Assembly: GCF_003611605.1 (NCBI RefSeq) | Contig: NZ_RAVX01000011.1 | Coordinates: forward strand, 196,811 to 255,096 | Reading direction: 5' to 3' | Length of the DNA: 58,286 nucleotides | DNA from: Corallococcus sp. AB011P | Lineage (GTDB): Bacteria; Myxococcota; Myxococcia; Myxococcales; Myxococcaceae | Shown: positions 3,001 through 44,717 of the stretch, piece after piece | Numbering within the stretch: position 1 is the first letter of the stretch | How the letters are laid out: every line of letters begins with the position of its first letter | The notes under the pieces: model-generated | What the model was told of the DNA's origin: nothing | The model's database searches: none | Seen by the model: only the letters and a program-made list of their open reading frames with translations | Position numbers and translations under genes: made by a program

Positions 3001-6000
3001 ACCGCGCCGCCCGTGCCCCAGGTGCGCACGGCCGAGTCCCCCAGCGCGCGCACCACGTTGCCTCGGATGCGCACGTCGAACACCGGCTGCGGACCGCCCA
3101 GCAGGATGCCAAAGCCCGGTGTGGACTCGCCGTCTCCCTCGATGCGGTTGTCCACCACCTCCACGTCCGAGGCGGGGCGGCCGTTGGACGCGCCGTCATC
3201 CAGGCCGTCGCCCACGACGATGCCGGCCACCACGCCCAGCACGGACGCGGCGGGCACGGCCGGCAGGGAGATCCACGACTCGCGCACGCGCAGCGCCCGG
3301 CCCGCCAGCTGGATGCCCACCTGGAACAGGCTGTCCGACACGGCGTTGCGGATCTCGTTGCCCACGATGTCCACGCCGTCGCCCGCGACCTGGATGCCCA
3401 CGGCCGCGGAGCCGAGGATCTGATTCTCCGCCACCACCACGCGGTCCACCGGCCCCGCGAGCCCCCCTTCCGCCAGGTCCTGCACCAGGATGCCCACGAG
3501 GAAGCCCTGGATGCGGTTGCCGCGCACCTCCACGCCCGCGAGGAGCCCGTCCGCCACGTGGATGCCCGTGGTCGCGTCTCCCAGCGGCTCAAGCCGGTTG
3601 TTGGTGATGGCCAGCGCGTCCACGAACAGGCCCGCGCGCGGGAAGGACGCGAGGAAGCGCTCCGCGAGATACGGGGCATACGGCGCCACCGCGATGCCTG
3701 TCGCCGCGCCGACGCGGTTCTCGTCGATGACGATGCGCTCGCAGGTGCCCGTCACCAGCACGCCTGTCGCCTCCGAGCCGGCCTGGTTCGCCTGGATGTG
3801 GCAGCGGCGCAGCGTCACGCCGCTGGAGTCCGCCAGCGTCACCACGCCGTGCGGCAGCGCCGCCAGCGCGTCGAGCAGCGGCTTCGCCTCCGGCACGTCC
3901 TCCAGTGGCTGGCCTGGATGCTGGCGTTGAAGCTTGCGCAGTTGCACCAGCGTGGCCACCACGGAACCCGCCGCGCGGCCCTGGCCCGGGACGATGGCCT
4001 TGATGCGGTCGACGACCACGTCCACGAAGTCGGCTTCGGCGGACGGGTGCTTCACGTCGTCCTCCTCCAGCACCCGGTCGTCGTCCACCTCCGCCAGCGG
4101 CACGAAGCGCTGGCCGTTCGTCAAGGCCACGCTCGCCTTCACGGCCTTCACCACGGGCTGGAGGCCGCCGCCAATCACCACGTCCTCGAAGGGAGCCTCC
4201 ACCAGCTTGAAGTCCTCGATGCGCACGTCGCCGTCCAGGCCGCAGCGGTCCACGAAGAAGGCTCCGCCGGAGCCCTGGGTGCGCAGCTCGGTGGCCTCGC
4301 CGTCGCCCAGGAGGTGCACGGAGGACAGGTTGCGCAGCAGCACCGGGTGCTCCAACTTGTAGCGGCCGGCTCGCACGAAGATGGAGCCGCCCTGCCCGCC
4401 CATGCTGTCCACTGCGGCCTGGAGCGCCTCGTCGCCGGTGATGCCTTCGAGCAGGTCCTGGTCCACGTCGCCGAAGCTGCGCACGCCGTCGCCCACCACC
4501 ACCGTGAAGACACCCGGGCCGATGACACGCTCGGAGAGCTCCACCAATCTGTCTCGCACCTGGGCGAGCGGCAGGTAGCGCGGGCGCAGGTCCTCGAAGC
4601 TTCGCGTCGCGCCGCCTGTTACGCGCGCCAGTGGCACGCAGTGGTGCACCGGGCCGTGCACGGGCGCGTCCGTGAGCTGCTCGACTTCCCCCCGGGCCGC
4701 GCCGTCCGCCGCGCGCACTCGCACGGTGAAGGACCAGTATTCGGTCGCGCGCCCTTCCGTGTTGGCGAAGGCCAGGGTGATGCCGTCGTCGAAGCGGTAG
4801 CGCACGCCGGGCACCAGCAGGTCGCCGCCGTCCCACCGGCGCACCACCGCGCCCTGCTCCGGACTGAAGGCCCGGCCCAGCGTGCCTCCCACGGGGAGCG
4901 GCACGGGGTCGGTGGTGAGCACGGCGCTCGCGTCCGCCAGCTCCAGCGTGCCCGTGTCCGCCTGGACGCCTCGCAGCCTCCGCAGCACTGGCAGTGATGG
5001 GCCTTCCGGCTGGAGCCGGGTGACGCTGTCCTCGATGACGACGAGGTCACCCGCGCGCAGCTTCGCGGCGCTCGCGGGGGAGACCTGGAGCGTCATCGCG
5101 TCCGCCGCCGCGGCTGCGGTGAGCGGGAGCACCGTGGAGCCGTTGTCTCGCGACCACAGCACCACCGGCTGCGCGCCGCCCCGGAAGAACTCCACGCGGA
5201 AGTGGAGGTTGTCGGAGCCCGTGTAGCCTTCGCCCGTGGAGGCGTTCTCCGTGGACAGGCAGCGGTCGCGGCAGGGGTCCAGCGGCTCCGGTGGGAAGCG
5301 GTCCGGCAGCGCGCCCTTCGGGATGTTGGTTGTGAGGCGTGCGCCGCTGGTGGGCGTGGGCAGGTCTTCCGCGTCGGTTGCGGCCAGCCCCTGGAGCGCG
5401 CGCACCTGGGTGACGAGCCGCAGGCGCACGGTGGTGTCCTGGCCGTCCAGCGCGGGCTCCTCCAGGAACGCGTCGTCGTACTGGGTGGTGGTCTGCTCCC
5501 AGCAGTCGAGGAAGAAGAAGTGGTGCCGCGAGCCGTCCGTGGGCAGCGCCGCCAGCGGAGGCGCCTCTGGCAGGTCCGGCTGCGCGGAGTAGCGCAGGTC
5601 CTGCTCCAGGAAGACGCGCACGCCGTCGAGCAGCATGCGGCCCGCGCCCGGCAGCGTCCCGTCACCGCCTCTTATAATGATATCGGCGCCCAGCGCCGCG
5701 TCCTCCACGCGCAGCGCGGCCACCCACGTGCGGGCCACGGGCGGCAGGCCCAGCACTCCCCAGGAGCTCAGCTTCGCCGGGTCCACGCTCGCGAACGCGG
5801 CGACGGGGAAGCGCACGTCGTTCCAGCCCGTGGGTCGCTGGCCCAGACCGGCGGAGAGGACCGTCTCGTTCCCTTCCGTGTCCGCGACGACCACTTGCAG
5901 GTCGATGAACTCATCGTCGGTGGGCGGCCGTTCGAAGCGCAAGCTGATGACGAGCGCGGAGGCGGTGAAGGCGGTGCCGTCCGAGCGCGGCACGGCCGTG

Positions 6001-6380
6001 AGATCCAACGGCGCGGGCAGCGTGCGGCGCAGCGCGACGTGGCCCCGGCTGCGCACCACGAAGGGCAGCGTCTCCGTGTCGTAGCGGTCCAGGCGCAGCT
6101 CGCGCGGGATGGTGCGCTCGTCGTCCGCGGGCAGGCCCTGCCCCGTCCAGCCGAGCACGTTGCGGATGGGGTCCACGAGGTACGTGTCGACGATGCGGAA
6201 GCCATCATCGGGCGAGCCCTCGGCGACGTCGGCGGAGCGGCGGCGCGCGTCCACGGTGCGCAGCCGCACCTCCTCGTTCCAGTCGGCGTCGAGGCTCATG
6301 CGCCCCATCTGCTGATAGACGCCAGAGAATCGCCGGGCTTCGTCGAAGCGGGACCTGGAGGTGTACGCTTTCACGGTCAT
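1..6380 (-). CDS. Giant parallel beta-helix repeat protein; tail-fibre or host-recognition candidate and last visible gene of the tail-like operon. At least 2126 aa; the C-terminus lies beyond the window start.
   Basis: The minus-strand frame is open from the ATG at 6380..6378 (MTVKAYTSRSRFDEARRFSGVYQQMGRMSLDADWNEE...) to position 1. It is missing from the ORF track only because there is no stop codon in the window. Codon third positions are almost all G/C; for example the reverse complement of 1..41 reads RVEDLVQLGSLKQ. The long plus-strand ORFs over this region (1380..4997, 228..1259, 5202..6575) have G/C at codon position 1 and an R/H/Q/A-rich composition, so they are antisense shadows. 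The protein carries many V-x-x-N-x-I/L and G-x-x-V-x-G repeats (VDNRIEGDG, VEDNRFEQV, VEGNEVDGV) typical of right-handed beta-helix (PbH1) proteins. Its start overlaps the stop of the upstream gene (ATGA at 6377..6380). Confidence 0.6.
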   Translation of the reverse strand, partial: MTVKAYTSRSRFDEARRFSGVYQQMGRMSLDADWNEEVRLRTVDARRRSADVAEGSPDDGFRIVDTYLVDPIRNVLGWTGQGLPADDERTIPRELRLDRYDTETLPFVVRSRGHVALRRTLPAPLDLTAVPRSDGTAFTASALVISLRFERPPTDDEFIDLQVVVADTEGNETVLSAGLGQRPTGWNDVRFPVAAFASVDPAKLSSWGVLGLPPVARTWVAALRVEDAALGADIIIRGGDGTLPGAGRMLLDGVRVFLEQDLRYSAQPDLPEAPPLAALPTDGSRHHFFFLDCWEQTTTQYDDAFLEEPALDGQDTTVRLRLVTQVRALQGLAATDAEDLPTPTSGARLTTNIPKGALPDRFPPEPLDPCRDRCLSTENASTGEGYTGSDNLHFRVEFFRGGAQPVVLWSRDNGSTVLPLTAAAAADAMTLQVSPASAAKLRAGDLVVIEDSVTRLQPEGPSLPVLRRLRGVQADTGTLELADASAVLTTDPVPLPVGGTLGRAFSPEQGAVVRRWDGGDLLVPGVRYRFDDGITLAFANTEGRATEYWSFTVRVRAADGAARGEVEQLTDAPVHGPVHHCVPLARVTGGATRSFEDLRPRYLPLAQVRDRLVELSERVIGPGVFTVVVGDGVRSFGDVDQDLLEGITGDEALQAAVDSMGGQGGSIFVRAGRYKLEHPVLLRNLSSVHLLGDGEATELRTQGSGGAFFVDRCGLDGDVRIEDFKLVEAPFEDVVIGGGLQPVVKAVKASVALTNGQRFVPLAEVDDDRVLEEDDVKHPSAEADFVDVVVDRIKAIVPGQGRAAGSVVATLVQLRKLQRQHPGQPLEDVPEAKPLLDALAALPHGVVTLADSSGVTLRRCHIQANQAGSEATGVLVTGTCERIVIDENRVGAATGIAVAPYAPYLAERFLASFPRAGLFVDALAITNNRLEPLGDATTGIHVADGLLAGVEVRGNRIQGFLVGILVQDLAEGGLAGPVDRVVVAENQILGSAAVGIQVAGDGVDIVGNEIRNAVSDSLFQVGIQLAGRALRVRESWISLPAVPAASVLGVVAGIVVGDGLDDGASNGRPASDVEVVDNRIEGDGESTPGFGILLGGPQPVFDVRIRGNVVRALGDSAVRTWGTGGAVGRLRVEDNRFEQVALADVPSQEDNTLALSRLDPGLEAVLSADAKARPRPLVEALLANATTRVRAPLDAALRWLERLTLRGAVVLSGVDEAQVRGNRLLQVGRTEAYGAPGLPDAEVRAAGIAVVSGSGITVEGNEVDGVHAPVTTTQPPPVPGPVKLPPITVVLQQLSVTSTTVRPERADVHGAVVGMYGTLLQYTGANVDGRQKIGRGLYGPLDTLVVELEDLGTVPDSVLNALVTDVADLRTAQGFNDHTQTSHAVRSSLARASSFTAPEPVSQEAWDMVAQFDLATVSGKDAVASTADRIKGAFDSLVQGLPSDTQDFLLKALARVQGGPGDLAAIVMLAGALSQVALLREAQAQRARQPVIGQAVGPKKTIIGTFAQAALQQLPLQPGTRGATANTDVLVQLRTSKDALTDQLQELHPALASQVEADYRDVERTGGQLQPVVDRMRATLQQVLDFTTGVLPSSDVTPEDGARVAAQGLTATIGLYATNLDRQAAGLVTESDDTVEKQLRAFGTAVGQLGELVSGDAELSALSLQAHQAVINAIAQPQNRLEQVSIARGLLDRIRVQTLDVLPVPTPLPPVPVQAEPLERWVSALGALVLAVRGMAPGPVLSGSLQLYLSQYDRVLDIAGVQGKLRTLALQRVNDAITALTSGNGDVPARQALHLLVDEPATTAAEAVARSSAVTAELDAAAVLLRAVEQALDPAEDDASRVARLQEYLRQRADKVSASLVAVVTGMQALDAILDMLRKSLEQLARGEAPDPGDLVDPVFDTFPSPADGLFVSGVQGRVRLADNTVRDTATGITALGAAGHLLTEAPTDPGSLLDVDGNRLEGCAVAGLRLLPDLSVTVVSDNHLFACAGLPTAGEPGLGQAVASFVGSGELVVKGNVFLESGNTLPQAVLHEVAIDWRGETVVRGNTVRHAGGGGGGAGVLVVTDTLPPGLVAKLSRVPFLATDPVPKPSTDGRAVLGKPAPSAVATLASVPRVEDLVQLGSLKQ

Positions 6381-9300
6381 GGTCGGCTCATCCGGACGAG
6401 GTCGTCCTGGCTGCGGTCGGCGTGGAAGGGCGTGATGCCAATGGGCATGCTGTCGTCGGTGCGCGCCTGGAGTTCGCGCTCGTGGTTGGAGCGCTCGTCG
6501 TGGGCACCGGGGACTCCGCCGCGCTCGGAGGCGTGGAGCGCTTCGGGGCCGTTGTTGTCGCCCAGGACGAGGTAGCCCGGGTCCGTCTGGCGGTTCGACT
6601 GGAAGGACACGGTGTGCACCCGCGACTGGTGCGACACCGGAGGCTGTCCACCGCGCGCGAGGAGGCTGTAGCGCAGCCAGCCCAGGTCCGGCCGGTCCGT
6701 GCGCACCTCGCCCGCGAAGGCGCAGGAGGACGCCTCCAGCACGCCCGCCTCCGTGGCGCCCAGCACCGTGCAGTGCCGCAGCCGAACGCTCGCGCCCGCC
6801 GCGCGGATGGCGACGGCGTCACGGTCCCCCGCGTCGAAGGTGCAGCCCGCGGCGATGAGGTGCACCCAGGGCGGCAGCTCGATGGCGCCCACCATGCAGC
6901 CGTAGAGGCGCAGCTCCACATCAGCGGGAGGCAGGGAGCGCCGCGCGCTGATGTCCTGGTGCCCACCGCCGGGCATCCACAGTCCCACCTGTCCGGGCGC
7001 GCCCAGGCTGCACCAGCGCAGGTCCGCTTGCCCCCGAGCGAGCACCAGGTCCAGCCGTCCCGCGAGCCACAGGCCCGCGAGCCACACACGCGTGGCCGCG
7101 CTGCCTCCGAAGCCCGGGTAGAGCGCCAGCGAGAGGCCGTGCTCGTCCGCGCCGATGCAGGGCACCGCGCCCGTGTCCGCGGCGAAGAGGGACAGCCCGT
7201 AGTCCAGCCCCTGTGACAGGCGCTCCGGAGCCAGACGCGGCGAACCGATGAGGCCCAGAATCGGCGGCGATCCGGCTGGGCTCTCTTCTGCGAGGTTCGC
7301 GATATCCGGCGGCACCTGACCTTCAGTCGCGACCACCGAGGACGCGCCGGAGTCGAGACCTTGTGCGCCGACCGAGCCGATGGGTCGCGCCTGGCCTCCA
7401 GTCGCCAGCACCACGGACGCGCCGGAGTCGAGACCTTGCTCGATGGTCGCGACGATGGGCCGCTCCTGGCCTCCGGCCGCCAGCACTCCGCCCGCGCGCT
7501 CCGGGGAGATCCACGCGGTGACAGGGAGGCCGGTGCTGGAGCGGTCGCCAGGACGGTCCGGTGGGTCGATGAATGGGAAGTCCGGCTCCGCCCACGCCGC
7601 GGGCGGACGGCGGTCCGGCGGAAGCAGCCCCGCTCCCAATGAGGCGCCCCGCCCTACCCGCGCGGAGAGGGTGACGCGGCCCACGGGCGCGTCGTCCTGG
7701 AGCACGACGCGGCCCAGGCGCGGATCCACCGCGACGATGCCGGAGGCGATGCTCGGAGCGAGCGTCGTCCACGGGCCCAGGCTTCGCTGGCGCAACTGGA
7801 ACGGATGGCGCCGCAGCCGTCCGGGCACCGAGTAGCGCCGCGCGCCACCTGCGACGGAGGCATCCCGCGAGTGGTACGCGCCACCGGGCCGGGAATCGAG
7901 CGGGAGCGGCTGGCCCTCGCGAGGCTCGATGAACGCGGCGCCGTCGTTGGCGACGTTGAAGCGCAGGAGCTCATCCGGGAGCAGGGCCAGCTCTGGCAGG
8001 AACGCCAGGTAGCCGCGTCCGCCCAGTGAGAAGACGACCTCCGACGCGGGCAGCGGCGCCGGATCCACGAGGAGCACGCGACCATCGACGTACAGCGCTT
8101 CGCCCGGAACCGGCGGGTTCGAGCCCGAGGGCTCCAGCAGTCCCGCGACCCAGGCACCCTCGCCTGCCTTCAGCGTCATCCATTGAGGACGCGTCGTGTC
8201 CGCCCAGACAAGCGCCTCCACGCCGTCGGCGGTGGTGGTGGCCACGAGCGTGCCGGGCAGGTTCGCGGTGATGGGCAGCGGGGCCAGGGAACGCCAGACA
8301 GGGCTCGCGGAGGCCGGGTCGCAGGACATCACCGGCACGGCCAGTTCTCCCGTCACGGCCTCGCCGCCCAGGAGCATCAGTCCTTGCGCCGTGCTCAGCA
8401 GCGTCGCGGCCTTGCGCTCCTGGCGGTTGCGCACCGCATGGGGACGCCACGGTCCGCCCGTGACCGGCAGCGACCAGAGGTCTCCGGTGGGCGCGCCACC
8501 CAGGTCACCGCCAAAGACGAAGAGCCGGCCGCCGCGCACGCACAGGCTGGGGGCCAGTCGCGCCGCGGGCTGCCGGGGGCTCGTGGTGTCCAGCCGCGTC
8601 CCCGTCGGAGTCGCGGTGTCCAGGCCTGTCACCGACCACACACCCAGCTTCCCCGTACCGTCAGGTGCCACCAGCAACAGCGAGTCGCCAGCCGCGGCCA
8701 GGGACATACCGGGACCCTCCGGAGGCAACGCGCCGCTGAGCTCCGCCACCTGCCATGGCGCACCGTCGGCGCTCGCGTCGAAGCGGGCAAGGCGCAGGCT
8801 GCCGTCCGCGAGGTGTTGCTCGATGCGCGCGACCCATGCCGCACCGGCCAGGTCCACACGGACGGCGTTGCTGCGCGGAGGCCCCTGGCGCAGGCCCACG
8901 GCGAGGGTGCGCCACGTACCGTCCACGTCGCGCAGGCGCGGATCACCGCTCACGCGTTCGACGAGCAGCGCCGCCGTGGTGCCGCCCAGGAGCTGGTTCG
9001 CCTCCGGCGTGACGGTGACGGTGTTCAGGGCGTCCGACACCAGCTCGGTGGACAGGAGCACCGTGTCCGAGTTCTCACGCGCGGCGAGCAGCGTCAGTCG
9101 CCAGGTGTCTCCGGGCGAAGGCCTGCCCCGGTCCGCGAACCGCAGCGTGGGCGCGGGCCCCACGGGCGCGGTGGGCAGCGGTCCGCGCAGGAGCGGCAGG
9201 GCTTCCGGCCCCACCAGCGGAATGCCGTCGACGGAGACGGTGATGGCATCCGCGCGTTCGGCGGCGTCGGCGTCCTCGGCCAGCGCGGTGGGGGTGAGCA

Positions 9301-10168
9301 GCATCGCCGCCGTGCGTCCCGTGGCGAGCGACGGAGGCGCGGGCTCATGGCGCGCGGTGAGGCCTCCGGTGAGGTCCGCGCGCTCCAGGGGCTTGAGCCA
9401 CACCAGGGGACCATCGCGGTCCAGGGGATCCACGCGGAAACCCCGGTAGCCGTTGGGCAGCGCTTGCACGGTGGCTGGGGTGACGTCCTCCAACTCCACG
9501 GGCGTCAGGCGCGCGGTGCGGATGAGGGCGACGTCCGGACGTGCCCAGCCCAGCAGGTCCAGCGTGCGCGGCGTCGCGGCGACACGGCCCGCATCCGCGC
9601 TCCCCAACCGGCGCAAGGCCTGATCCAGCGTCTCTCCCGGCGCGATGCCAATGAAGGGGCCACGCTCCGGGACACCGTCGCGGGGACGCTCGATGCCAGG
9701 TGAGCGGCGGGTGAGCGGATCCGCGAGGCCGATGGGATCCCACATCACCGCGCTGCGACCGCGCCAGGGCAGCAGGTCATTGAGGTCCTGGGTCTCCAGC
9801 AGCGAACGGAAGGACTCGTCGACCTCCGCGTCCCAGAGGCTGGTGACGGAGAGCACCTCCTCCAGCGACGCGAGCGTGCCCTTCCGTCTGCGCCACGCCA
9901 CCGCGCGAGCCACCACGCCGCGCTGCACGCGAGGGTCGTCGGTGATCAGCCGTGCGCCCATCAACTCCGCGAGCAACGGCAGCGCCTGCGGGCCCGCGCG
10001 CTCCACGAAGTGATCATCCCAGAGCTGGTCCACCGCGCTCGCGAACGCGTCCAGTTCCATGCCCAGCACGGCGAGCAGCTTGAGGAGCGGCTGGTCCGCG
10101 AGCGTGGAGTCCCGCGCCGTGTAGAGGCCGGGGAGGAGCTGGAGCAGTCGCTGGGAGGGCCGGCTCAT
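6377..10168 (-). CDS. P2 gpI-like (Tail_P2_I family) baseplate or tail protein with Kelch-like repeats and a C-terminal beta-helix region (1263 aa).
   Basis: ORF 6377..10249. The start is chosen at the ATG at 10168 (MSRPSQRLLQLLPGLYTARDSTLADQPLLKLLAVLGMELDAFASAVDQLWDDHFVERAGPQALPLLAELMGA...RRKGTLASLEEVL). This N-terminus fits the LLP...LWD...LP.LA.l.G...kR...r.KGT pattern of phage P2 tail protein I. Further on come Kelch-like blades (GGRLFVFGGDLGG, LMLLGGEAV) and a C-terminus with IAAGCTFDAGDRDAVAIRAAGASVRL-type beta-helix motifs. Confidence 0.65.
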   Translation of the reverse strand: MSRPSQRLLQLLPGLYTARDSTLADQPLLKLLAVLGMELDAFASAVDQLWDDHFVERAGPQALPLLAELMGARLITDDPRVQRGVVARAVAWRRRKGTLASLEEVLSVTSLWDAEVDESFRSLLETQDLNDLLPWRGRSAVMWDPIGLADPLTRRSPGIERPRDGVPERGPFIGIAPGETLDQALRRLGSADAGRVAATPRTLDLLGWARPDVALIRTARLTPVELEDVTPATVQALPNGYRGFRVDPLDRDGPLVWLKPLERADLTGGLTARHEPAPPSLATGRTAAMLLTPTALAEDADAAERADAITVSVDGIPLVGPEALPLLRGPLPTAPVGPAPTLRFADRGRPSPGDTWRLTLLAARENSDTVLLSTELVSDALNTVTVTPEANQLLGGTTAALLVERVSGDPRLRDVDGTWRTLAVGLRQGPPRSNAVRVDLAGAAWVARIEQHLADGSLRLARFDASADGAPWQVAELSGALPPEGPGMSLAAAGDSLLLVAPDGTGKLGVWSVTGLDTATPTGTRLDTTSPRQPAARLAPSLCVRGGRLFVFGGDLGGAPTGDLWSLPVTGGPWRPHAVRNRQERKAATLLSTAQGLMLLGGEAVTGELAVPVMSCDPASASPVWRSLAPLPITANLPGTLVATTTADGVEALVWADTTRPQWMTLKAGEGAWVAGLLEPSGSNPPVPGEALYVDGRVLLVDPAPLPASEVVFSLGGRGYLAFLPELALLPDELLRFNVANDGAAFIEPREGQPLPLDSRPGGAYHSRDASVAGGARRYSVPGRLRRHPFQLRQRSLGPWTTLAPSIASGIVAVDPRLGRVVLQDDAPVGRVTLSARVGRGASLGAGLLPPDRRPPAAWAEPDFPFIDPPDRPGDRSSTGLPVTAWISPERAGGVLAAGGQERPIVATIEQGLDSGASVVLATGGQARPIGSVGAQGLDSGASSVVATEGQVPPDIANLAEESPAGSPPILGLIGSPRLAPERLSQGLDYGLSLFAADTGAVPCIGADEHGLSLALYPGFGGSAATRVWLAGLWLAGRLDLVLARGQADLRWCSLGAPGQVGLWMPGGGHQDISARRSLPPADVELRLYGCMVGAIELPPWVHLIAAGCTFDAGDRDAVAIRAAGASVRLRHCTVLGATEAGVLEASSCAFAGEVRTDRPDLGWLRYSLLARGGQPPVSHQSRVHTVSFQSNRQTDPGYLVLGDNNGPEALHASERGGVPGAHDERSNHERELQARTDDSMPIGITPFHADRSQDDLVRMSRP

Positions 10169-10373
10169 GGGGTCCGCACCTCCACGAGGAACAGCCTTGC
10201 GTCGCGGCCACGGGAGCCCGCCCTGACGCGGTGGCCGTCGGCCCTCCACGGCGAGGCATGGCTCAGAGGTCCCGAACTTCCTGTCGGACAGCTCAGCGCG
10301 TCATCCCCGCCATGGCGTCCCGCGCCAAGCCCCCGGACCTCAAGGCGGTCCCCCTCCCGCCCGGACCGCTCCC

Positions 10374-10398
10374 AACCTGTCCGACAGTCGGACAGGTT
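10374..10398. repeat. 25-bp near-perfect palindrome AACCTGTCCGACAGTCGGACAGGTT (arms of 11-12 bp).
   Basis: Read directly from the sequence. Its reverse complement is identical except for the central dinucleotide. Confidence 0.9.
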
Positions 10399-10513
10399 TC
10401 CGGGGCCCGGCGGGAGCGGGGGCGTCCCCCAGCCACACCGGCTGGCGCGGCAGGTCCGACAGGCAGCGTCCCGGGGAGCCCGACAGGCCCGGGAGGCCCC
10501 CTGCGGTCGTCCA

Positions 10514-10538
10514 AACCTGTCCGACAGTCCGACAGGTT
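10514..10538. repeat. Second copy of the 25-bp palindrome (AACCTGTCCGACAGTCCGACAGGTT), 140 bp from the first.
   Basis: Read directly from the sequence. It has one mismatch relative to the first copy. Confidence 0.9.
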
Positions 10539-10655
10539 CGTGCGGTGCGCCTCCATGGAGGGGCCCCAGTCGGGCTCCCACCTGTGCATCCACAGGGACG
10601 GAGTCCGTGTCCCGGGGCGTGAGGCAGCGCTTGTTCAGGCGCATCGAGGCGGGGC

Positions 10656-13157
10656 TCATAGGTCCTGGGCCTCCTCGTAGGTGAGCGCGACGCCATCGCT
10701 TTCTCCGGACGGCGGAGCCCATGCGAGCAGCTCGCCGGGCGCGGTGACGATGCGCTCGAAGAGGGCTGGCGGCGTGCCTTCGCGGTGCAGCCGCTGCACG
10801 ACCACTGAGCGCAGTCCCTCGATGCCCGCGAGCGCGCCGTACACGTCCGACAGTTGCAGGTCCTGTCCCAGCTCCACGCGGTCCGGATCCAGCAGGCCGG
10901 GCTCGCGCTCCGGGTCGCGGTCCACGCCCAACCGCAGGCGCGTCTCTTGAAGCACCGCGACCGGATCCGCGCCCTTCACCACGCGCAGCAGCACCCGCAG
11001 CCGCACCTCCACGCGCTGCCGGTTGGTCAGGTGCAGCTCCACCTTCGGCGCCACCCGTGCCGCCAGGTGCGCGTGGAGGGCTTCCAGGTCCGACGCGCCA
11101 AGGGCCGCTCCTTCTGGCCCGGAGACCACCACCTTCAACGAACGGCGGCGCACGCCGTCCCGGAACACGTTCGCGCGGTGCACTCCGTCGAACACCAACG
11201 TCAGCGCACGCACGTCCGAGAGAGACACGGCGCGGTCCATCGCGCCCACCGCCGCGGGCCCTCGCACGCGCGCCAGCGCCGGTGCCTCCGGATCTGTTCC
11301 TCCGGCCAGCGGCAACGGGTTGAACGTCTTCTCCACGCACGGATGCGGGCTCGCCATCGCCAGCAGCCGCAGCGCGGCCCGGTTGCCTCCCGTCCCTCTG
11401 CCCACGCGGTAGCGGACCCGCACCTCCGCGCCCAGGGGCAACGCCGAACCGTGCTCCCCTTCCCCGAAACGAAGCCTCGCGGCCCCGGCCGGTAGCGGCT
11501 CCACCGCGAAGGCCAGCTCATCCGGCGCGGCGTCCAACAACGAATCCACCGGATGCCACGCGCGTCCCCCCACCGTCAGGGACACTTCCGGGCGGCGGCC
11601 TCCCGCTCGGCTCGGGTCGCGCAGCCAGGTCACCGGTCCATGCAGCAGCGGCACCGTGCGCAGATCCAGCGCGGGCACGGCGACCTCCTCCACCGTGGAG
11701 CCCTCGCTGACGAGCGTGTTGTTGCCCAGCAGCACCACGCGATCCAACGCGTACGCGCGCGACAGCGGCGGCTGGAACGTCACCTGCGTCATCGGCGTGC
11801 GCTGACCGGGCGGGACCTCCGTGCGGACGCGCAGCACTCGCAGCGCTTCTCGGTAGAGCCGCTCCGTGCCCTTCGCTCCGCCGGGGCCCAGGCGCTCCAC
11901 GTCCTCGGCCAGCACGAACCAGTCTCCCGGGCGCACCGGTGGATCCTGCGAGGTGAGCCCGGAGGCATCCGTCAGCGGCGGCAGATAGAGGCTGTCCGTG
12001 CCAGATGCCGCCACGCCCAGCGGCCGGGCCACGCCCGCCTCCGCGCCAAAGGCCTGGTCCGCCCGGTTCAGCGCTTCACTGCCCTTGAGGATGACGAGTT
12101 GATCCCGCGCCTCCTGGATGAGGCTGTTCACGAAGGCATCCAGGAACGTGACCATCTTGTCCAACCGGACCGCGTGCACGGTCGGATCCTCGTCCGCGCA
12201 CGGGGCCAGCGCCTCCTCCAGCGCGGCCAGTGCGTCCGCCTGCCGCTTCTGCAAGTTCCGGAGCTGGCGGGCGAGGATCTCCTGCGACTCGGACAACGCG
12301 CCGACGGGACGGCCGGGCGGAGGCACGGCCTGCGCCACGACCTTCTGGGCCTCGCACAGTTGTTCGCAGAGCGCGTCCAGCGTGCTCTTGCACGCGGCAT
12401 CTCCACCCAGGTCCAGCGTCTTCATCAACGACGCCAGCTTGCGAGCATCCTGCTTCGCACGAGCCACCTGCCGTTCCTCCAGTGGACCGTGGCGCTGCAC
12501 CTCGATGCGCTCCTGGAGCCCCGCGACCACCGAGCCAGGCCCGAAGATTCCGCCCGTGGGCGCCGGAGCCCCGGGCTCACCCGGCTCGCCAGAAGGCGCG
12601 CCGGTCCCCCCACCCGTTCCACCCGTGCCCGTTCCCCCGCCCGTCCCGGCTCCAGCTCCGGTCCCTGCTCCAACCGGAGGAGGCAGGAACGCGCGAAGCT
12701 CGTTGAGCTCCGGCGACAGGCGCAGCGGCGCGAGCGTCTCGAACACGGCGGCGGTCTCTTCCCCTTCCGCCGCCGAATTCACCGCCGTTCCCGCGGACAG
12801 CGTGCCGCGCACGTTCGCCTTGCAGCGAAAGTGCTGGAGCCCCACCGCCGCGGTGCCCGGGCTCGGCCGATAACCGATGTGCCCGAGCAACTTGGAGACG
12901 GAGTCCTCCAGCCGCGCGGTGGCGAGGAAGCCCTCCTCCGCCCACGCCTGCTGATACGTCCACAGCACATGCAGCGCGAGCGCCACGCTGTCCAGCAGGC
13001 CCCGCCCCAGGTCCACCGAGGATGGCGCCGCGTACGCGAGAGGATTCCACGTGGGCGCCTCGTCCAGCCGGGCGTAGACGATGCGCGCCGACTCGCCCAG
13101 CCGGGTGCGGAGCTGATCATGCGTCAGCGCCTGGTGCGTGGAAGGAACGCGACTCAT
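10656..13157 (-). CDS. Second baseplate wedge protein of the gp6/gpJ type (a Baseplate_J-like paralogue), with an internal coiled-coil and a Gly-rich linker (833 aa).
   Basis: ORF 10656..13508. The real start is most likely the ATG at 13157 (MSRVPSTHQALTHDQL...), which overlaps the stop of the upstream gene as ATGA. The segment LLDSVALALHVLWTYQQAWAEEGFLATARLEDSVSKLLGHIGYRPSPGTAAV resembles the Baseplate_J core and parallels RDAQSLLAVMLERARTVMAPW...DSLAYQQERAVVEGFLEDARL in the neighbouring J protein. A G/T-rich low-complexity linker (GAGTGAGAGTGGGTGTGG) is followed by a heptad-like helix (ERQVARAKQDARKLASLMKTL). Confidence 0.45.
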   Translation of the reverse strand: MSRVPSTHQALTHDQLRTRLGESARIVYARLDEAPTWNPLAYAAPSSVDLGRGLLDSVALALHVLWTYQQAWAEEGFLATARLEDSVSKLLGHIGYRPSPGTAAVGLQHFRCKANVRGTLSAGTAVNSAAEGEETAAVFETLAPLRLSPELNELRAFLPPPVGAGTGAGAGTGGGTGTGGTGGGTGAPSGEPGEPGAPAPTGGIFGPGSVVAGLQERIEVQRHGPLEERQVARAKQDARKLASLMKTLDLGGDAACKSTLDALCEQLCEAQKVVAQAVPPPGRPVGALSESQEILARQLRNLQKRQADALAALEEALAPCADEDPTVHAVRLDKMVTFLDAFVNSLIQEARDQLVILKGSEALNRADQAFGAEAGVARPLGVAASGTDSLYLPPLTDASGLTSQDPPVRPGDWFVLAEDVERLGPGGAKGTERLYREALRVLRVRTEVPPGQRTPMTQVTFQPPLSRAYALDRVVLLGNNTLVSEGSTVEEVAVPALDLRTVPLLHGPVTWLRDPSRAGGRRPEVSLTVGGRAWHPVDSLLDAAPDELAFAVEPLPAGAARLRFGEGEHGSALPLGAEVRVRYRVGRGTGGNRAALRLLAMASPHPCVEKTFNPLPLAGGTDPEAPALARVRGPAAVGAMDRAVSLSDVRALTLVFDGVHRANVFRDGVRRRSLKVVVSGPEGAALGASDLEALHAHLAARVAPKVELHLTNRQRVEVRLRVLLRVVKGADPVAVLQETRLRLGVDRDPEREPGLLDPDRVELGQDLQLSDVYGALAGIEGLRSVVVQRLHREGTPPALFERIVTAPGELLAWAPPSGESDGVALTYEEAQDL

Positions 13158-16100
13158 CGCAGGCCTCCGCACACCTGCACGGTGAGGACGCCTTCCGAAC
13201 CCGGCCAATAACCACCCCGAGCGGTGGCCACCTCGTCCGGTCCAATGGGAATGACGCCCGCCTCCAGCCGCTCCTGCGCGTGGGGCTCCAGCCGGCGGAA
13301 GCGCTTCACCCGCACCGCCGTCACACCCGGTACACGCAGCACCGCCTGGTACAGGTCCGCGAGCTGCACGTCGCCGTTCAGGCCAGAGCGGTCCGGATCC
13401 AACAGGCCGCCGTCCCCAGCGATGGCGCCCACCACCGCGTCGCGCACCTGGTCGGCCTGCGCATGCGGCTCGGCATCCACCTCCAGGTCCAAGTCGAGCG
13501 GCACCCACTTGGGCGGCAGCGCCTCCACGTCCACGCCCAGCAGGCGGATTTCCTCCAGCCGGCTGCGCACTCCAGCCCAGCGGCGAAGCAGCTCGTCGCG
13601 GTCGAGTGTGTCCTCGTCGCGCAGCAACACCGTCACGCGGATGACCGTGCGCAGGTCCCGGTCCACGGCGCGCGCCGAAGCCCCCGCCACCTCCGGCATC
13701 TGCTGGAGCATCCGCACGTAGTCATCGACCGTGACGGCGGACAGCGGCTGCGACACGCCCGCCGGTGCGCGGTAACGAAGGGAGTCGAGCGACTCCGCGT
13801 CGCGTCCCCCCACCGCAGGCAGCGGGTTATCCACGCGCACCAACGCGCGCACGTCGTCCATCGACTGGGCCAGCAGCTCGCCCGCGGACGCGGAGCGCTG
13901 CGGATCCAACGGCACCTGGAGCAACCGCGTGAGCACGCCCTCCCCCACGTTGGCCACCGTCCCCAGCCCGACGCGCAGCGACAGTCCCAGCGTCGTCTCC
14001 CGAGGCGGCAGCGCGGCGCCGTTGACGCCATCGCCCCAGCGAAGGCTGGCGCCACCCGTGGGCGTCGCGCGCAGCACGAACACCTCATCCCCCGGCCCCT
14101 GGACGGACAGGTCGTCCACCAGCGTCCAGGGGTCGTCCTCCACGCTCACCTGGAGCTGGGGTGTCCCGCGCCGCGACGTCTCCTCCGGCAGTGGATACCC
14201 GGAGGCCTGGACGCTGACTGGATGGAACGGCAGGGCGAACTCGCGCTCCTCGCTGCCGTCCACCACCGGGGACAGCAACGCGCGCCACTGCGCGAGGCTG
14301 CGCGCGAAGGGCTCCGCCGAGTCCGCCTCGAAGCCCTCTGGAAGCGGCGTCACCGGCAGCCCGTGATGCGCGGGCACCACGTTGCCCAGCACCGTCGCGC
14401 GAGGCCCGGGCGCGGGGTCTCCCGGTGCCAGGAATACCTCCGGCGCGAACCTGCGCGGGTCCCACCCGACGAAGGTCGTATCGGTGGCGAGCGCCACGGA
14501 CGTCACTCGCACCACGTGTCCGCCCTCGCCGCGGCCCTGGTAGAGGATCAGCCACCGGCCGGGCTCCAGCTCCGGGTACAGGCCCGCGAGCGTGGCGCCC
14601 GTGTCCCCCAACTGCACGGACTCCGCGAGCGTCACGGCCTCCAGCCGGGGGAAGTACGACAGGGGCGACTCGGTGACGAACACCAGCGAGTGCTCGTCCG
14701 TGGAGCCATTCGCCACCAGCGTTTCGGCGGGAATCTCCAGCACGCCGCCACCGGTGAGGAACTCCAGCGCGGTGGTGCCGGGCGGCAGCACTGTCAGGTT
14801 CAGTTCCTCCAGCCGAGCCTTCACCAGCGCCGCGAGTGCCTCCGGATCCAACCTGAACCGCAGCATCACCGTGGCGGAGAGCCCCGGGTCCGGCACGCAA
14901 TCCAGCCCGCGTGCGTGGTCCTCCACGGAGCGCCGCAACCGGGCATCCTCCAGGAAGCCCTCCACCACCGCGCGCTCCTGCTGGTACGCCAGCGAGTCCA
15001 GCTGCGCGGCCACGGCCTCCAGCAACATGGTCGTGAAGTCCGCGGGCCCCCGGTCCTCCCACGGCGCCATCACCGTGCGGGCCCGCTCCAGCATCACCGC
15101 CAGCAGCGACTGCGCGTCGCGGGCCCGGTAGTCCACCAGCGCGCCAGGCGCCGGCCGCTCCGGGGCCGCGAGCCACGGGCGCGGCTGCGGATCCCGCACG
15201 TCACAGCCCGGCACCACGTCCGGAGCCCACGCGCCAATGAACGGCGCCGGGTCACGAGGACCATCGCCCGGAACCGGCACGGCCGCGCGCGAGATGGCCG
15301 CATCCGGCACCAGCCGCAGGTCCACGGTCTCCGGTGGCGGCAGGCCGCCGGTGAGCAACACGGGAGGGACCTCCGGAGTCCCCGGCGTCCGGTACGGCAG
15401 CGGCCCCACCTCCAGGAACGGCGGGGCCGCGCCCTGCGCGAACAGCGCGGGCGATGCGGACAGCTCCGCGTCTGGCTCCAGCACGAAGGGCGCGCCCACG
15501 ATGGCCGTGAAGAGCGAGTCGTACGCGCGAATCTCCCCGGGTCCCAACCGCAGCCCATGCGCATGCCGGTGCCAGGTGAGCTGCGCGAGCAGCAGCTGCT
15601 CCGCCTGGAGCCAGCCCGCGTGCACCGACGTCCAGGCCTCGGTGCGCCGCACCAGCGCCGTGCGCAACCCGCCCTCCAGCTGCAACGCGGTGCCGGTGAT
15701 GACGAAGAGGGAGCAGTCCTCGACGGCGATCTCCCCCGGCGTGCCCACGTCCAGCACCGGCTCCAGGCCGCCCAGCGGCGCGGCCACGTGCAGGCCCACG
15801 ACGTCCGCATCCATGGGAAACCCAGGCAGCGTCAGCGGCCCCACGACCGAAGCAGACAGTGCATCCAACGCGACGGAGAGCCAATCCGACCACGCCGCAG
15901 CGGGCTGCGCGGACACCGGCACGGGCGCCGCCGACACACGGCTCACCTCCACGTCGCGAACCACCACCGGCTCCAGCGAAGGTCCCCCCAGCACCCGCAT
16001 GCCCGTGGCGCGCGTTCCGGCGGCGATGTCCTCCACCTGGCCCATGGCCACTTCGATGCTCCGCCCACCCAGCGCGAGCACGCCCATCGGGAACCCGCCC

Positions 16101-16921
16101 TGCACCCGCTGCACGGTGAAGCCACGCACCTGGAGCGGGCCCACCGAAGCCGCCACGAGCCCGATGCTCCACTGCACCCCGAACGCGTTCACCTCGCTCA
16201 CGGACACGTCCACCATGGACAGGCCCTCGCCCTCCTCCCGAGCCACCAGCACCCGTGCGCCGGTCGCGTTCGGCCCGGAGACCTCCGACACCGTGAGCCC
16301 GGACAGGTCCGCGCGGGTGAAGCCCGCCAGCTCCAGGCCCACGCCCGTCTCCATGCCCATGACGTTGCTCACCGCCACGTCCGCCCACTGCGAGCGCTGG
16401 CAGACCGCCCGCACGCCAAAGGCGTCCCCCACCGTGGCCTTCACTCCGTCCACGGACAGGCCAGTGACGCGGGCCTCGGTCGCCAGGAGCCGGAGCCCCG
16501 TCGCCACCTCGCCCTTCGCCTGCGTCACCGTGAGCGAGTCGATGACCACCGTGCCATCCGGCGTCTCCACGCTCACCGCCGCGCAATCCCCCGACGCCGT
16601 GGCGTTCACCGTGACGTCCGACACCTCGACCCGTGCCCCCAGGAGGACCACCCCGGCGTCCACCGCCACCACCGTCACGCTAGACAGGCCGGTGACGAGC
16701 CCCGTGACTTCGAGCGTCCCGCCGTCGAGCCGCAGCGTCACGCCCGGCCCCCCCGTGAGCCGCAGCGCGTGCGCGGGCGTGCCGACGACGAAGTTCGTGG
16801 TGAGCACGCCTTCGCCCACGGGCAGCATCCACTCCACCTCGCCCGGCGGCGTGGTCTCCAACGTGGCCTGGGCCTCCGCGAGCGACGCCTCCAGTGGCAA
16901 TGTCAGGACCCGCGCGCTCAC
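13154..16921 (-). CDS. Baseplate J-like (gp6/gpJ/Afp11-type) wedge protein with an N-terminal extension of about 400 aa of beta-helix-like repeats (1255 aa).
   Basis: The ORF has strong GC3 bias. Its central region (PWEDRGPADFTTMLLEAVAAQLDSLAYQQERAVVEGFLEDARL ... DDYVRMLQQMPEVAGASARAV) fits the Baseplate_J family pattern. The N-terminus is rich in V-T/S-V and G-x-x-V repeats. The gene sits immediately downstream of the gp25-like gene, as in P2 (W-J) and eCIS (Afp9-Afp11). Confidence 0.6.
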   Translation of the reverse strand: MSARVLTLPLEASLAEAQATLETTPPGEVEWMLPVGEGVLTTNFVVGTPAHALRLTGGPGVTLRLDGGTLEVTGLVTGLSSVTVVAVDAGVVLLGARVEVSDVTVNATASGDCAAVSVETPDGTVVIDSLTVTQAKGEVATGLRLLATEARVTGLSVDGVKATVGDAFGVRAVCQRSQWADVAVSNVMGMETGVGLELAGFTRADLSGLTVSEVSGPNATGARVLVAREEGEGLSMVDVSVSEVNAFGVQWSIGLVAASVGPLQVRGFTVQRVQGGFPMGVLALGGRSIEVAMGQVEDIAAGTRATGMRVLGGPSLEPVVVRDVEVSRVSAAPVPVSAQPAAAWSDWLSVALDALSASVVGPLTLPGFPMDADVVGLHVAAPLGGLEPVLDVGTPGEIAVEDCSLFVITGTALQLEGGLRTALVRRTEAWTSVHAGWLQAEQLLLAQLTWHRHAHGLRLGPGEIRAYDSLFTAIVGAPFVLEPDAELSASPALFAQGAAPPFLEVGPLPYRTPGTPEVPPVLLTGGLPPPETVDLRLVPDAAISRAAVPVPGDGPRDPAPFIGAWAPDVVPGCDVRDPQPRPWLAAPERPAPGALVDYRARDAQSLLAVMLERARTVMAPWEDRGPADFTTMLLEAVAAQLDSLAYQQERAVVEGFLEDARLRRSVEDHARGLDCVPDPGLSATVMLRFRLDPEALAALVKARLEELNLTVLPPGTTALEFLTGGGVLEIPAETLVANGSTDEHSLVFVTESPLSYFPRLEAVTLAESVQLGDTGATLAGLYPELEPGRWLILYQGRGEGGHVVRVTSVALATDTTFVGWDPRRFAPEVFLAPGDPAPGPRATVLGNVVPAHHGLPVTPLPEGFEADSAEPFARSLAQWRALLSPVVDGSEEREFALPFHPVSVQASGYPLPEETSRRGTPQLQVSVEDDPWTLVDDLSVQGPGDEVFVLRATPTGGASLRWGDGVNGAALPPRETTLGLSLRVGLGTVANVGEGVLTRLLQVPLDPQRSASAGELLAQSMDDVRALVRVDNPLPAVGGRDAESLDSLRYRAPAGVSQPLSAVTVDDYVRMLQQMPEVAGASARAVDRDLRTVIRVTVLLRDEDTLDRDELLRRWAGVRSRLEEIRLLGVDVEALPPKWVPLDLDLEVDAEPHAQADQVRDAVVGAIAGDGGLLDPDRSGLNGDVQLADLYQAVLRVPGVTAVRVKRFRRLEPHAQERLEAGVIPIGPDEVATARGGYWPGSEGVLTVQVCGGLR

Positions 16922-17292
16922 GGCGGCGCCTCCAGGTCCCGGCGGAACAGCTCCGCGTGCTCCTCACCCGTCGCCAGCAGCGTGTAGAGGATGTCCACGT
17001 AGAGCGTCGCGTCCTCGGCGCTCACCTTCACCGCGTCCAGGCGCACCTGGTCGCGCATGAACTCCTGCACGTTGAGGCGGATGACGTACTCGGCCGTGGC
17101 GGCGGCCTCCGGGCTCGCGGCACCGAACACCATCCGCTGCACGCCGCACCCGAAGCGCGGCCGGTTCACCCGCTCCCCGGGCAGCGTGAAGAGCAGCTGC
17201 TCCAACTGCTGGCGGATGACCTGCGAGGGCCCCACCGTGCGCGGCGTGCCCAGGTCTCCCAGTTGGAAGGGGAAGTACAGGCCGCGTCCCAT
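16918..17292 (-). CDS. gp25/gpW-like baseplate wedge protein (GPW_gp25 lysozyme-like fold), 124 aa.
   Basis: Within ORF 16918..17763 the real start is at 17292 (MGRGLYFPFQLGD...), overlapping the stop of the upstream gpD-like gene (TGATG). The motifs LLFTLPGERVNRPRFGCGV and ATLYVDILYTL match the gp25/TssE consensus (T.pGER..rP.fG; EPR/Y...i.Y). Confidence 0.8.
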   Translation of the reverse strand: MGRGLYFPFQLGDLGTPRTVGPSQVIRQQLEQLLFTLPGERVNRPRFGCGVQRMVFGAASPEAAATAEYVIRLNVQEFMRDQVRLDAVKVSAEDATLYVDILYTLLATGEEHAELFRRDLEAPP

Positions 17293-18479: not shown

Positions 18480-18757
18480 CAGGGCTTCTCCGGGATGAAC
18501 AGCACCGTGCCCGGCTCCAGGAGCGCCTCGGGCTCGAAGGTGGGGTTGGCGTCCACGATGCGCCACGCCTGGAACGGGTCGCTGAAGTAGCGCTGCGCGA
18601 GCAGGTCCAACCGGTCCCCCGCCACCACCTTGTGCAACAGCGACGTGGGCACGCGCGGCGCCACGCGGGGCACGTACAGCGACACCGTGGAGCCCTCCGG
18701 GCCCAGCGGCACCGCGTACGTCGGCAGGTCCTTGTGTCGCGAGGAGGGGTCGCTCAT
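18479..18757 (-). CDS. Phage tail protein X-like small LysM-fold protein (92 aa).
   Basis: HKVVAGDRLDLLAQRYFSDPFQAWRIVDANP matches the LysM-like core of P2 gpX (Phage_tail_X). Its position immediately upstream of the gpD-like gene matches pyocin and P2-like tail modules. Confidence 0.65.
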   Translation of the reverse strand: MSDPSSRHKDLPTYAVPLGPEGSTVSLYVPRVAPRVPTSLLHKVVAGDRLDLLAQRYFSDPFQAWRIVDANPTFEPEALLEPGTVLFIPEKP

Positions 18758-26623: not shown

Positions 26624-26842
26624 CCCAACGGGAGGGCATGCGCGGGACGGTAGGGCCCGGCCCTCTGGCTGTCTGTCATTGGTGCCGGCCAGGCGGCAGC
26701 CGCGCCTCCGGGCCGGTGTGGATTGCCCGTGGGCGTTGGGGATGCACACCCTCCAGATCAGGCCACTCCCATGGTGGGAAGCGGCGTCACGGGGCCCTGC
26801 CTCCAAGCTCGCCGGGAAGGGTCGGGGTCAAAGGAGGCGCGC

Positions 26843-37078: not shown

Positions 37079-37091
37079 GAGCAGGGCCGCC

Positions 37092-38075: not shown

Positions 38076-38114
38076 TTCATGTTACATGTCTTTCATTCAC
38101 AAGGACAGACGCCC

Positions 38115-38714: not shown

Positions 38715-38771
38715 GCTGAAAATGCGGAACGGGGAGCGGCTTGACGCCCTCCCCGTCCCTCCACCCGGCTG

Positions 38772-39419: not shown

Positions 39420-39451
39420 GGTTTCGGTCCTCCATTTTGCTGCGGGGTTTG

Positions 39452-40969: not shown

Positions 40970-41019
40970 GGAGAAAGGCCTCGTTCAGGAAGGTCGTGGG
41001 GAAGGGCTTGCGCCCGGCA

Positions 41020-43143: not shown

Positions 43144-43170
43144 CGGCGGACCGACGGGGGAACGGCGCGC

Positions 43171-43749: not shown

Positions 43750-43761
43750 CGGGGGGGCGCG

Positions 43762-44714: not shown

Positions 44715-44717
44715 GCC

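Follow-up and report, generated by a model that had tools for sequence, protein, structure and literature searches.

The locus considered here raises the question of why two genes of a phage-tail-like contractile injection cluster, both encoded on the minus strand, are separated in Corallococcus sp. AB011P by a palindrome-rich spacer of 487 nt. The window, i.e. the whole stretch of DNA that was analysed, is 58,286 nt long (contig NZ_RAVX01000011.1, positions 196,811 to 255,096 of the forward strand), and the spacer occupies its positions 10169-10655, between a gene for a baseplate-J-like protein on its upstream side and a gene of the Tail_P2_I family (gpI) on its downstream side. [quoted passage not shown] The comparisons reported here give us high confidence that the spacer is a lineage-specific and recent insertion of a dispersed-repeat element, and the whole explanation, according to which this inserted element is modular and carries a core that is probably a site of the GntR type, is considered likely.

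The spacer is a real non-coding gap, as had been claimed. The bias towards G or C at third codon positions (GC3), which reaches at least 0.9 in the flanking genes, is without periodicity in all three codon phases over the stretch from about 10170 to 10650, and a GC3-biased gene was looked for without any being found, none of the candidate open reading frames (ORFs) in the spacer having a coding composition (GC3 of 0.59-0.81, against at least 0.86 in real genes). The upstream gene ends with a TGA at 10658..10656 on the minus strand, and its product is a 100% match to the protein P0001 of Corallococcus sp. AB011P, some homologues being named baseplate J/gp47. The downstream gene starts with an ATG at 10168..10166, preceded by the Shine-Dalgarno sequence GGAGG at 10183..10179, and its orthologues begin at the same ATGAGCC in the alignment. 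The further claim that every other junction of the operon is tight holds for the single junction examined, the next one upstream, where the two baseplate-J-like genes overlap by 4 nt at 13154-13157; this ATGA-type coupling is the arrangement that was lost at 10169-10655 through the insertion.

Comparison of the same junction between relatives distinguishes filled from empty sites. The junction is filled in AB011P (487 nt) and in two sister strains, CA049B (568 nt, locus L121; upstream protein at 97%) and AB038B (382 nt, locus L122; 96%), whereas it is empty, with an ATGA overlap and no gap at all, in a Myxococcaceae metagenome-assembled genome (MAG; 85%), in an SRA assembly (74%), in C. soli (87%) and in C. 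llansteffanensis (87%) (loci L123/L124, L125, L129 for C. soli and L130 for C. llansteffanensis). Since C. llansteffanensis harbours the repeat family at other loci (L018 and L102) while its junction is empty, the family predates this particular insertion, and the site is polymorphic within the genus.

Besides, both borders of the spacer retain traces of the ancestral overlapping junction (Table 1). At the border next to the upstream gene, GCCCCGCCTCGATGCGCCTGAACAAGC, read in register after ATGA and with its matches counted manually, corresponds to the bases that come after ATGA in the ancestral junction. At the other border, the stretch that now forms the 5' leader of the downstream gene, GCTGTTCCTCGTGGAGGTGCGGACCCC followed by ATG, agrees at 20 of 27 positions, the GGAGG included, with the ancestral GCTGTTCTACGAGGAGGCGCAGGACCC followed by ATGA, the successive 10-nt bins from -40 to -1 giving 5, 7, 7 and 5-6. 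Based on this in-register comparison at the ATGA anchor, approximately 60-75 nt of the junction are duplicated, with the element between both copies. In the ancestor, the two baseplate genes overlapped by ATGA; in the lineage of AB011P, CA049B and AB038B, some 60-75 nt of their junction was duplicated and the element now stands between the copies, of which the left one retains the stop of the upstream gene and the right one provides the downstream gene with its ribosome-binding site and start codon. Duplication and insertion are shown by comparing the sequences. A long target duplication was also considered as a general signature of the element and rejected, a flanking direct repeat being not significant at 21 of 22 other elements in a test that is blind to duplications of a few bases. 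The duplication is therefore read as a site-specific solution that let an insertion between overlapping genes survive, and it shows how such an insertion is tolerated, each copy keeping the signal that one of the two genes needs.

The 25-bp palindromes that had first drawn attention to the spacer belong to this element. The two 25-bp inverted repeats are both present, but perfect arms, which had been attributed to both of them, are found only in the one at 10374-10398, the other having one arm mismatch. The shorter palindromic pieces were confirmed as described, i.e. CTGTCGGACAG at 10281-10291, GTCCGACAGG at 10454-10463 and CCCGACAGG at 10479-10487, whereas the count of at least five half-sites has to be lowered: exact CCGACAGG occurs four times in the spacer, next to which six distinct GTCSGAC heptamers can be counted. 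Local enrichment is pronounced, as 9 of the 12 matches to GTCSGACAG in the window lie within the spacer, for a whole-window expectation of 2.1, and none of 100 shuffles reaches 12. No further copy of the 25-mer occurs in the 58-kb window at up to 3 mismatches. The only heptamer-plus match nearby, GTCCGACAG at 10845-10853, stands alone within the upstream coding sequence, 190 nt off the spacer, and is probably a chance occurrence.

That the 25-mer is not private to this locus was established by a scan with the 21-mer pattern CCTGTCCGACAGTCSGACAGG of one genome per species, amounting to 596 Gb, which returned at least 120 stretches; the loci analysed are the 8-kb stretches around these matches, about 0.94 Mb in all. 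They contain 273 copies at up to 4 mismatches and about 300 at up to 6, among which 147 are exact save for the central A/T. The family consensus reads AACCTGTCCGAC[A/T]GTCGGACAGGTT, and the first 25-mer of the window (10374-10398) is identical to it. Among the matches listed, nearly all loci come from nine named Corallococcus species or strains, and 16 loci belong to one unclassified MAG; the other hosts are three Archangium MAG contigs, one Hyalangium, one Myxococcaceae MAG and one Dactylosporangium. The last of these (L090) was rejected as a family member, its 21-mer match showing no extension to the 25-mer and being, by estimate, consistent with chance in 596 Gb. The element is specific to Corallococcus and a few related myxobacteria. 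Copy numbers are high, at more than one hundred per Corallococcus genome: C. exercitus SDU142 has no fewer than 106 copies, spread over 36 loci, and C. coralloides KYC2213 no fewer than 60, over 15 loci. The preliminary description had treated a dedicated operator as something rare in the genome and dozens of identical copies as the mark of a generic repeat; the genome-copy search exceeded that number many times, and the claim of a dedicated operator was abandoned. With regard to placement, 77 of 127 arrays have called genes on both sides, another 13 fall within crude ORF calls whose extent is probably too great, and the others stand at the edges of the loci. Convergent gene pairs flank 30 of the 77 intergenic arrays, against a background of 22%.

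No description of the repeat or of the GntR expansion presented below was found in the searchable literature; a repetitive sequence of M. xanthus was reportedly described by Fujitani, Komano and Inouye in the Journal of Bacteriology in 1991. The repeat family is moderately new, and its locus in the tail operon is ordinary. One distinct subfamily is formed by the palindromes of the uncultured myxobacterial MAG MFD05674.bin.2.184 (loci L007, L009, L011, L013, L014, L020, L022, L027, L029 and others), in which the exact 25-mer occurs as single copies centred in near-perfect palindromes of about 75 nt, CCTCCCGGGCGCG..TTTTCAAAA-core-TTTTGAAAA..CGCGCCCGGGAGG.

The alignment of the copies reveals a modular build, in which a left module of about 50 nt (..GCCCCCGGAC.TCCATGCGG..CACCTCCCGCCCGACGCGGTCC) is followed by 1-13 units, each made of the 25-bp core and an internal spacer of about 45 nt with a period of about 70 nt, and then by a right module of 88 nt (CGTGCGGTGCGCCGCCGACGGGGAG..GGGTTCTCACCTTCTCATCCAGGGGGACAGGCTTCATGTCCGAGGGCC). 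The units of an array often have the same orientation, their spacing peaking at 69-73 nt with minor peaks near 92 and 139 nt, and the internal spacers have a loose family consensus both within and between arrays. A stop codon directly precedes the left module in several loci, and this module tends to come after the 3' end of a gene (10 cases versus 3). Two models were built for the terminal modules from copies of other genomes only, with the 25-mer left out, R1 from 20 copies of the right module and R2 from 17 copies of the left one. Both recognise the window element (Table 1) as well as the gaps of the two sister strains, and neither finds anything at the empty junctions. The element of the window spans about 10321-10626 on the plus strand, which is the rarer orientation relative to local transcription. 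Its two 25-mers stand 140 nt apart, and this distance is read as two units whose middle core has decayed: the distances of a putative remnant of that core, 67 nt to copy 1 and 73 nt to copy 2, fit the 69-73-nt period of the family, and the stretches on either side of it (10399-10440 and 10466-10513) align with internal spacers of the repeat family. The remaining segment of the spacer, 10209..10320, may be a decayed second element; it gave no significant match to R1 or R2 and no family match with blastn-short, a program too insensitive for this purpose.

Table 1. Features of the spacer and of the two genes that border it, with positions in the window.
Feature	Positions	Strand	Basis
Downstream gene, Tail_P2_I family, with Kelch-like repeats	6377..10168	-	Pfam Tail_P2_I, E 4e-7
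Copy of the final ~30-40 nt of the upstream gene, with GGAGG	10169..10208	-	20/27 vs ancestral
Spacer segment with 11-bp palindrome CTGTCGGACAG (10281-10291)	10209..10320	.	Present in CA049B, absent from AB038B (alignment)
Left terminal module (..GCCCCCGGACCTCAAGGCGGTCCCCCTCCCGCCCGGACCGCTCC)	10321..10372	+	Sequence-only model R2, 28.5 bits, E 2.3e-7
Core copy 1, 25-mer AACCTGTCCGACAGTCGGACAGGTT	10374..10398	+	Perfect 12+1+12 palindrome, equal to the family consensus
Putative decayed middle core	10441..10465	+	Surviving right arm GTCCGACAGG at 10454-10463
Core copy 2, 25-mer AACCTGTCCGACAGTCCGACAGGTT	10514..10538	+	One arm mismatch, at a position variable across the family
Right terminal module, motif CTCCCACCTGTGCATCC (family consensus TTCTCACCTTCTCATCC)	10539..10626	+	Model R1, full-length, 54.7 bits, E 4.9e-9
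Decayed copy of the opening ~30 nt of the downstream gene	10627..10655	-	GCCCCGCCTCGATGCGCCTGAACAAGC, 18-19/27 vs gpI 5' end, L123 and L129
Upstream gene, baseplate-J-like paralogue, 833 aa	10656..13157	-	Coding GC3 signature

Within the right module, TTCTCACCTTCTCATCC (10575-10591 in the window) is the best-conserved piece after the 25-mer and comprises two TTCTCA repeats 8 nt apart; a small GGACA..TGTCC hairpin comes after it (an example of a right module is L016:5682-5805 on the minus strand), and its opposite strand, GGATGAGAAGGTGAGAA, presents TGA in two frames. On the opposite strand of 10321-10372, R1 scores 17 bits (E 0.3), a weak likeness between the left module and the inverted proximal part of the right module.

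Among known dispersed elements, the closest match to this A-(B)n-C build is provided by the pneumococcal BOX elements and the minisatellite MITE of P. gingivalis (PMC4596501), which likewise consist of a fixed left module, variable internal units and a fixed right module, and which are non-coding, dispersed and variable in copy number between strains. Unlike BOX, the internal unit described here contains a near-invariant 25-bp palindrome, and no sequence relation between the two is expected or was seen in Rfam. The likeness to MITEs in general, which the preliminary description had already put forward, is partial. The element is non-coding, multi-copy and within the size range of 0.1-1 kb, and it shows insertion polymorphism, with three filled and four empty sites, but its terminal inverted repeats are at best weak, target-site duplication is not consistent, and no parent insertion sequence was found. 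The MITE-like proposal was the closest of the three readings as far as a dispersed, non-coding, modular insertion is concerned, and it fell short in that the element has neither clear inverted repeats at its termini nor a short duplication of the target nor a known parent insertion sequence.

The way in which the core is conserved informs on what may recognise it. Information content amounts to about 2 bits per position across a 27-nt core and is weak in the flanks. When divergence is computed on the 142 copies whose bases were not fixed by the search pattern, positions 5, 9, 13, 17 and 21 diverge in 39, 21, 41, 21 and 20% of the copies, respectively, whereas the GTC and GA(C) triplets diverge in 1-8%; per site, the values are 4-5% for GT at 6-7, 4-8% for GT at 14-15, 8-15% for AC at 11-12 and 1-4% for AC at 19-20. 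The resulting pattern is GTC.GAC.GTC.GAC. Departures from the consensus are one-armed in 320 cases and complementary on both arms in 16, and the two flanks of a given unit show no greater complementarity among themselves than with flanks taken from other units, without any covariation. As one-armed changes dominate, pairing is not what is preserved, and the three observations together argue for sequence-specific recognition of double-stranded DNA rather than for a hairpin; the core would most likely be recognised in that form by a protein.

These same data bear on the alternative of an RNA-level element, in which transcribed hairpins would shield the upstream message from 3' exonucleases or mark processing. 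Such an element would yield unequal amounts of baseplate and fibre proteins, as the REP sequences (repetitive extragenic palindromes) of E. coli do in some operons. Several observations are in line with it: the two 25-mers fold as strong hairpins (-11.6 and -7.9 kcal/mol with DNA parameters, z of -5.6 and -4.7), the RNA fold of the whole spacer is modestly better than that of its shuffles (z of -2.8, 1 in 100), arrays are enriched between convergent genes, and the left module tends to follow gene 3' ends. However, the core varies precisely at positions that would be paired with each other (5/21 and 9/17), with the excess of one-armed changes reported above, and the flanks show no extra complementarity. 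Moreover, no U-tract terminator is present, the scan for intrinsic terminators on both strands of 9800-11000 having returned none and G/C-rich sequence following the cores, and Rfam gives no match in the whole window at the gathering threshold, with only chance-level ones (E of at least 1.8) in 10000-10800. In addition, the window element stands in the rarer orientation relative to transcription, and from one genus to another the core stays identical whereas its flanks change, an indication that sequence matters rather than shape. An RNA-level role is consequently considered unlikely, and the hairpin claim of the preliminary description is not favoured by the fold check, by the unpaired type of variation, by covariation or by Rfam. 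The variant of an extended hairpin kept by covariation was likewise rejected, the flanks being not specially complementary and compensatory changes in the core being few.

Returning to a core read as double-stranded DNA, its pattern can be compared with the operators of the FadR subfamily of GntR regulators, whose proposed consensus is TNGTNNNACNA (PMC11472048) and whose typical spacing is GT-N3-AC (PMC4494728, also a source for the FadR/GntR consensus). As in these operators, among which the LldR site is TGGTCTGACCA, the core is a palindrome of the GT-N3-AC type, and the positions at which it varies are those that TNGTNNNACNA leaves as N. The 25-mer reads as two overlapping FadR/GntR-type 11-mers (nGTCnGACn twice) that share 3 bases. 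The motif of the nucleoid protein CdbA of M. xanthus was examined as another candidate and discarded, since it is a direct repeat and not this palindrome (PMC7156744).

An all-against-all comparison of the ORFs of the at least 120 loci disclosed one recurrent protein family, found in 23 loci, whose members are regulators of the GntR/FadR type, matching Pfam GntR at E 2e-13, resembling NanR/FadR over about 190 residues and weakly matching the structures of FadR and PdhR. In all 23 loci (L015:6552-7867, L046, L054, L043, L088, L092 and others), the centre of a core precedes the ATG by 77-79 nt, or by about 50 nt in one subclass, and the same position, -77 to -79, was observed in both of the two loci that had been fetched independently of the repeat search (L127:2356-3499 and L128:2044-3718). 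Such a fixed distance upstream of FadR/GntR-family genes is reminiscent of an autoregulatory GntR operator. From this fixed position and the operator-like conservation, we infer that the 25-mer is the cognate site of the GntR regulators; as a prediction drawn from sequence, the binding of the GntR paralogues to the core is plausible, and we hold it with slightly less than even confidence. The operator-array claim of the preliminary description accordingly survives as far as a predicted site for a dimeric protein is concerned, in view of the conservation pattern and of the fixed position upstream of GntR genes, and fails as regards a dedicated promoter of the fibre genes.

The regulator family itself has expanded within the genus. 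It counts 363 homologues at E<=1e-10, and among the 120 listed almost all are from named Corallococcus, with a few nameless ones; the chromosome of C. exercitus SDU142 carries at least 17 distinct GntR clusters, and AB011P also has members. Between about -255 and about +870, the paralogous units are 81-89% identical at the DNA level, and they share no gene besides this one. Because the paralogues do not share neighbouring genes, it appears that the GntR gene and its site spread together, as a unit of one gene. About ten of the GntR loci (e.g. L046 at ~5060-5090, L054, L092 and L102) have a second core 940-1360 nt downstream of the ATG, which lies in a C-terminal tail past about residue 255 and is translated as ..NLSDCRTG.. 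In this tail, GC3 falls to 0.70-0.78, compared to 0.85 over the first 255 codons, and the GntR ORFs seem to read through into repeat-derived DNA up to a chance stop codon. Since the tail lacks coding bias and contains a core, the functional GntR gene is considered to be bracketed by cores. An orphan right module was also tried as a remnant of a GntR leader, given that in both cases an ATG lies 65 nt past the core, but was rejected, the global alignment scoring 3.66 against 3.87 +/- 0.20 for shuffled sequences. In the apparently orthologous pair L046 and L057, from C. exercitus and C. coralloides, respectively, the flanks are 89% identical and the GntR gene between them 74%, and the upstream array counts a single core in one of the two species but seven in the second; these differences suggest fast evolution or replacement of the cassette.

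Several points weigh against the explanation as a whole and should be kept in mind. At the junction, the duplication beyond about 30 nt on each side consists of decayed similarity, and unanchored local alignments are insignificant alone. With regard to the operator, the centres of the two 11-mers are only 8 bp apart, which is unusual for two dimers, and where the FadR consensus has an outer T and A, the core has C and G. Apparent conservation is inflated by the choice of the at least 120 loci for an exact core, an effect that was partly controlled with the 142 copies mentioned above. Finally, about 100 of the 127 arrays are not beside a GntR gene, and the 16 loci of the MAG, with the exact core in palindromes of about 75 nt, do not contain a GntR gene in any case. 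Given that most arrays lie away from GntR genes, regulation does not explain the spread of the repeat. The predicted sites also differ from FadR operators in their arrangement, as two sites overlap in each 25-mer and one predicted site would be common to at least 17 paralogues and to more than 100 places unrelated to regulator genes.

By analogy, the core and the expanded FadR/GntR paralogues might form a partnership comparable to that between REP sequences and their transposases, the REP-associated tyrosine transposases (RAYT), with a regulator in place of the transposase, a speculative proposal that we regard as rather unlikely. If it were true, the gene, bracketed by a core at -78 and another in its non-coding-like 3' tail, would have spread together with these sites as a single-gene cassette, reaching 17 or more places in each genome; the orphan cores of modular arrays would supply more than 100 further binding sites, those of the tail operon among them, and regulator and scattered sites would jointly make up a network spanning the genus, possibly selfish or nucleoid-organising. 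No partnership of this sort between a regulator and distributed sites was found described in the literature.

The more classical alternative, that of a REP or of a REP doublet (REPIN) mobilised by a single-copy RAYT with the GntR association being incidental, seems very unlikely. In E. coli, REP clusters are bound by the integration host factor and by gyrase. The repeat shares a number of features with the REP sequences and bacterial interspersed mosaic elements (BIMEs) of enterobacteria and pseudomonads, being a short GC-rich palindrome in hundreds of copies, mostly intergenic, often at gene 3' ends, clustered with short conserved spacers and inherited vertically within a genus. It departs from them in its sequence and architecture: REP classes are defined by a GTAG or CGTC tetranucleotide, with no myxobacterium mentioned (PMC3733652), whereas the palindrome AAACCTGTCCGAC[A/T]GTCGGACAGGTTT has neither head at either end, and its units follow one another at about 70 nt in the same orientation rather than as alternating or inverted pairs. 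Furthermore, the conservation fits a double-stranded operator, and the associated gene, the only family recurrently flanked by cores, is a multi-copy GntR regulator and not a single-copy transposase. When 8063 ORFs, taken from the repeat-bearing loci and from the window, were searched by phmmer with the E. coli RayT, no hit appeared at E<=10, although a single-copy RAYT could escape from the approximately 0.94 Mb covered out of several genomes of about 10 Mb.

An operator array dedicated to this operon, with an internal regulated promoter for gpI and the fibre genes, is judged highly improbable. The core does resemble the site of a dimeric regulator, and the spacer lies directly upstream of the Tail_P2_I gene, where later co-option would be possible. 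Against this stand the hundreds of copies at other loci, the four relatives, including two Corallococcus species, in which the genes overlap by ATGA without any gap, the unequal length of the gap in close strains, and the absence of a promoter-like site in the spacer from a scan that covered promoters of the sigma-70 type, in a group where sigma-54 and ECF (extracytoplasmic function) promoters are common. Lastly, a small protein gene or a CRISPR-like array hidden in the spacer can hardly be credited, for ORFs of 98-224 codons can be drawn over it but none has a GC3 bias, and the palindromic period of about 70 nt is only superficially array-like, a CRISPR array being ruled out by internal spacers that are conserved within and between arrays rather than unique and by arrays standing at over a hundred loci per genome, with GntR as the only recurrent gene family in the fetched loci.

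With the insertion of a modular dispersed repeat retained as the preferred explanation, the element in the tail operon would be an accident of the spread of the repeat and not a purpose-built switch. Its local side effects would comprise lost translational coupling, an untranslated stretch, possible polarity and the possible binding of GntR regulators within the operon. The spacer is then to be seen as a recent passenger and should not be read as a conserved regulatory architecture dividing baseplate from fibre genes; the insertion breaks the ancestral ATGA coupling and adds an untranslated, potentially protein-bindable stretch in only some strains. More generally, Corallococcus genomes carry an abundant, structured repeat family whose operator-like core is tied to a lineage-specific burst of GntR genes, and its arrays are likely to cause breaks in draft assemblies and to give false leads when myxobacterial genomes are scanned for operators and small RNAs.

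As for the surroundings of the locus, the tail-like contractile injection cluster includes, besides the two genes of Table 1, a sheath gene (21680-24007), a GPD-like hub gene (17292-18566), the first Baseplate_J gene (13154-16921) and a beta-helix/DUF6519 gene downstream. A type VI secretion set (32434-48419) adjoins this cluster, so that the window holds two different contractile systems; it comprises genes for TssF (32434-34101), TssC/VipB (39452-40969), TssK/VasE (41890-43143) and a TssM/IcmF-like protein (44718-48419), and a PAS histidine kinase gene (26723-29164) stands between the two systems. Further on, 48938-54808 encodes a protein of 1956 aa made of Ig-like repeats of the HYDIN/ASH/DUF1573 type, and the GC content drops from about 0.72 to 0.58-0.65 within 49000-58286, another low-GC stretch of the window being 38000-42000.

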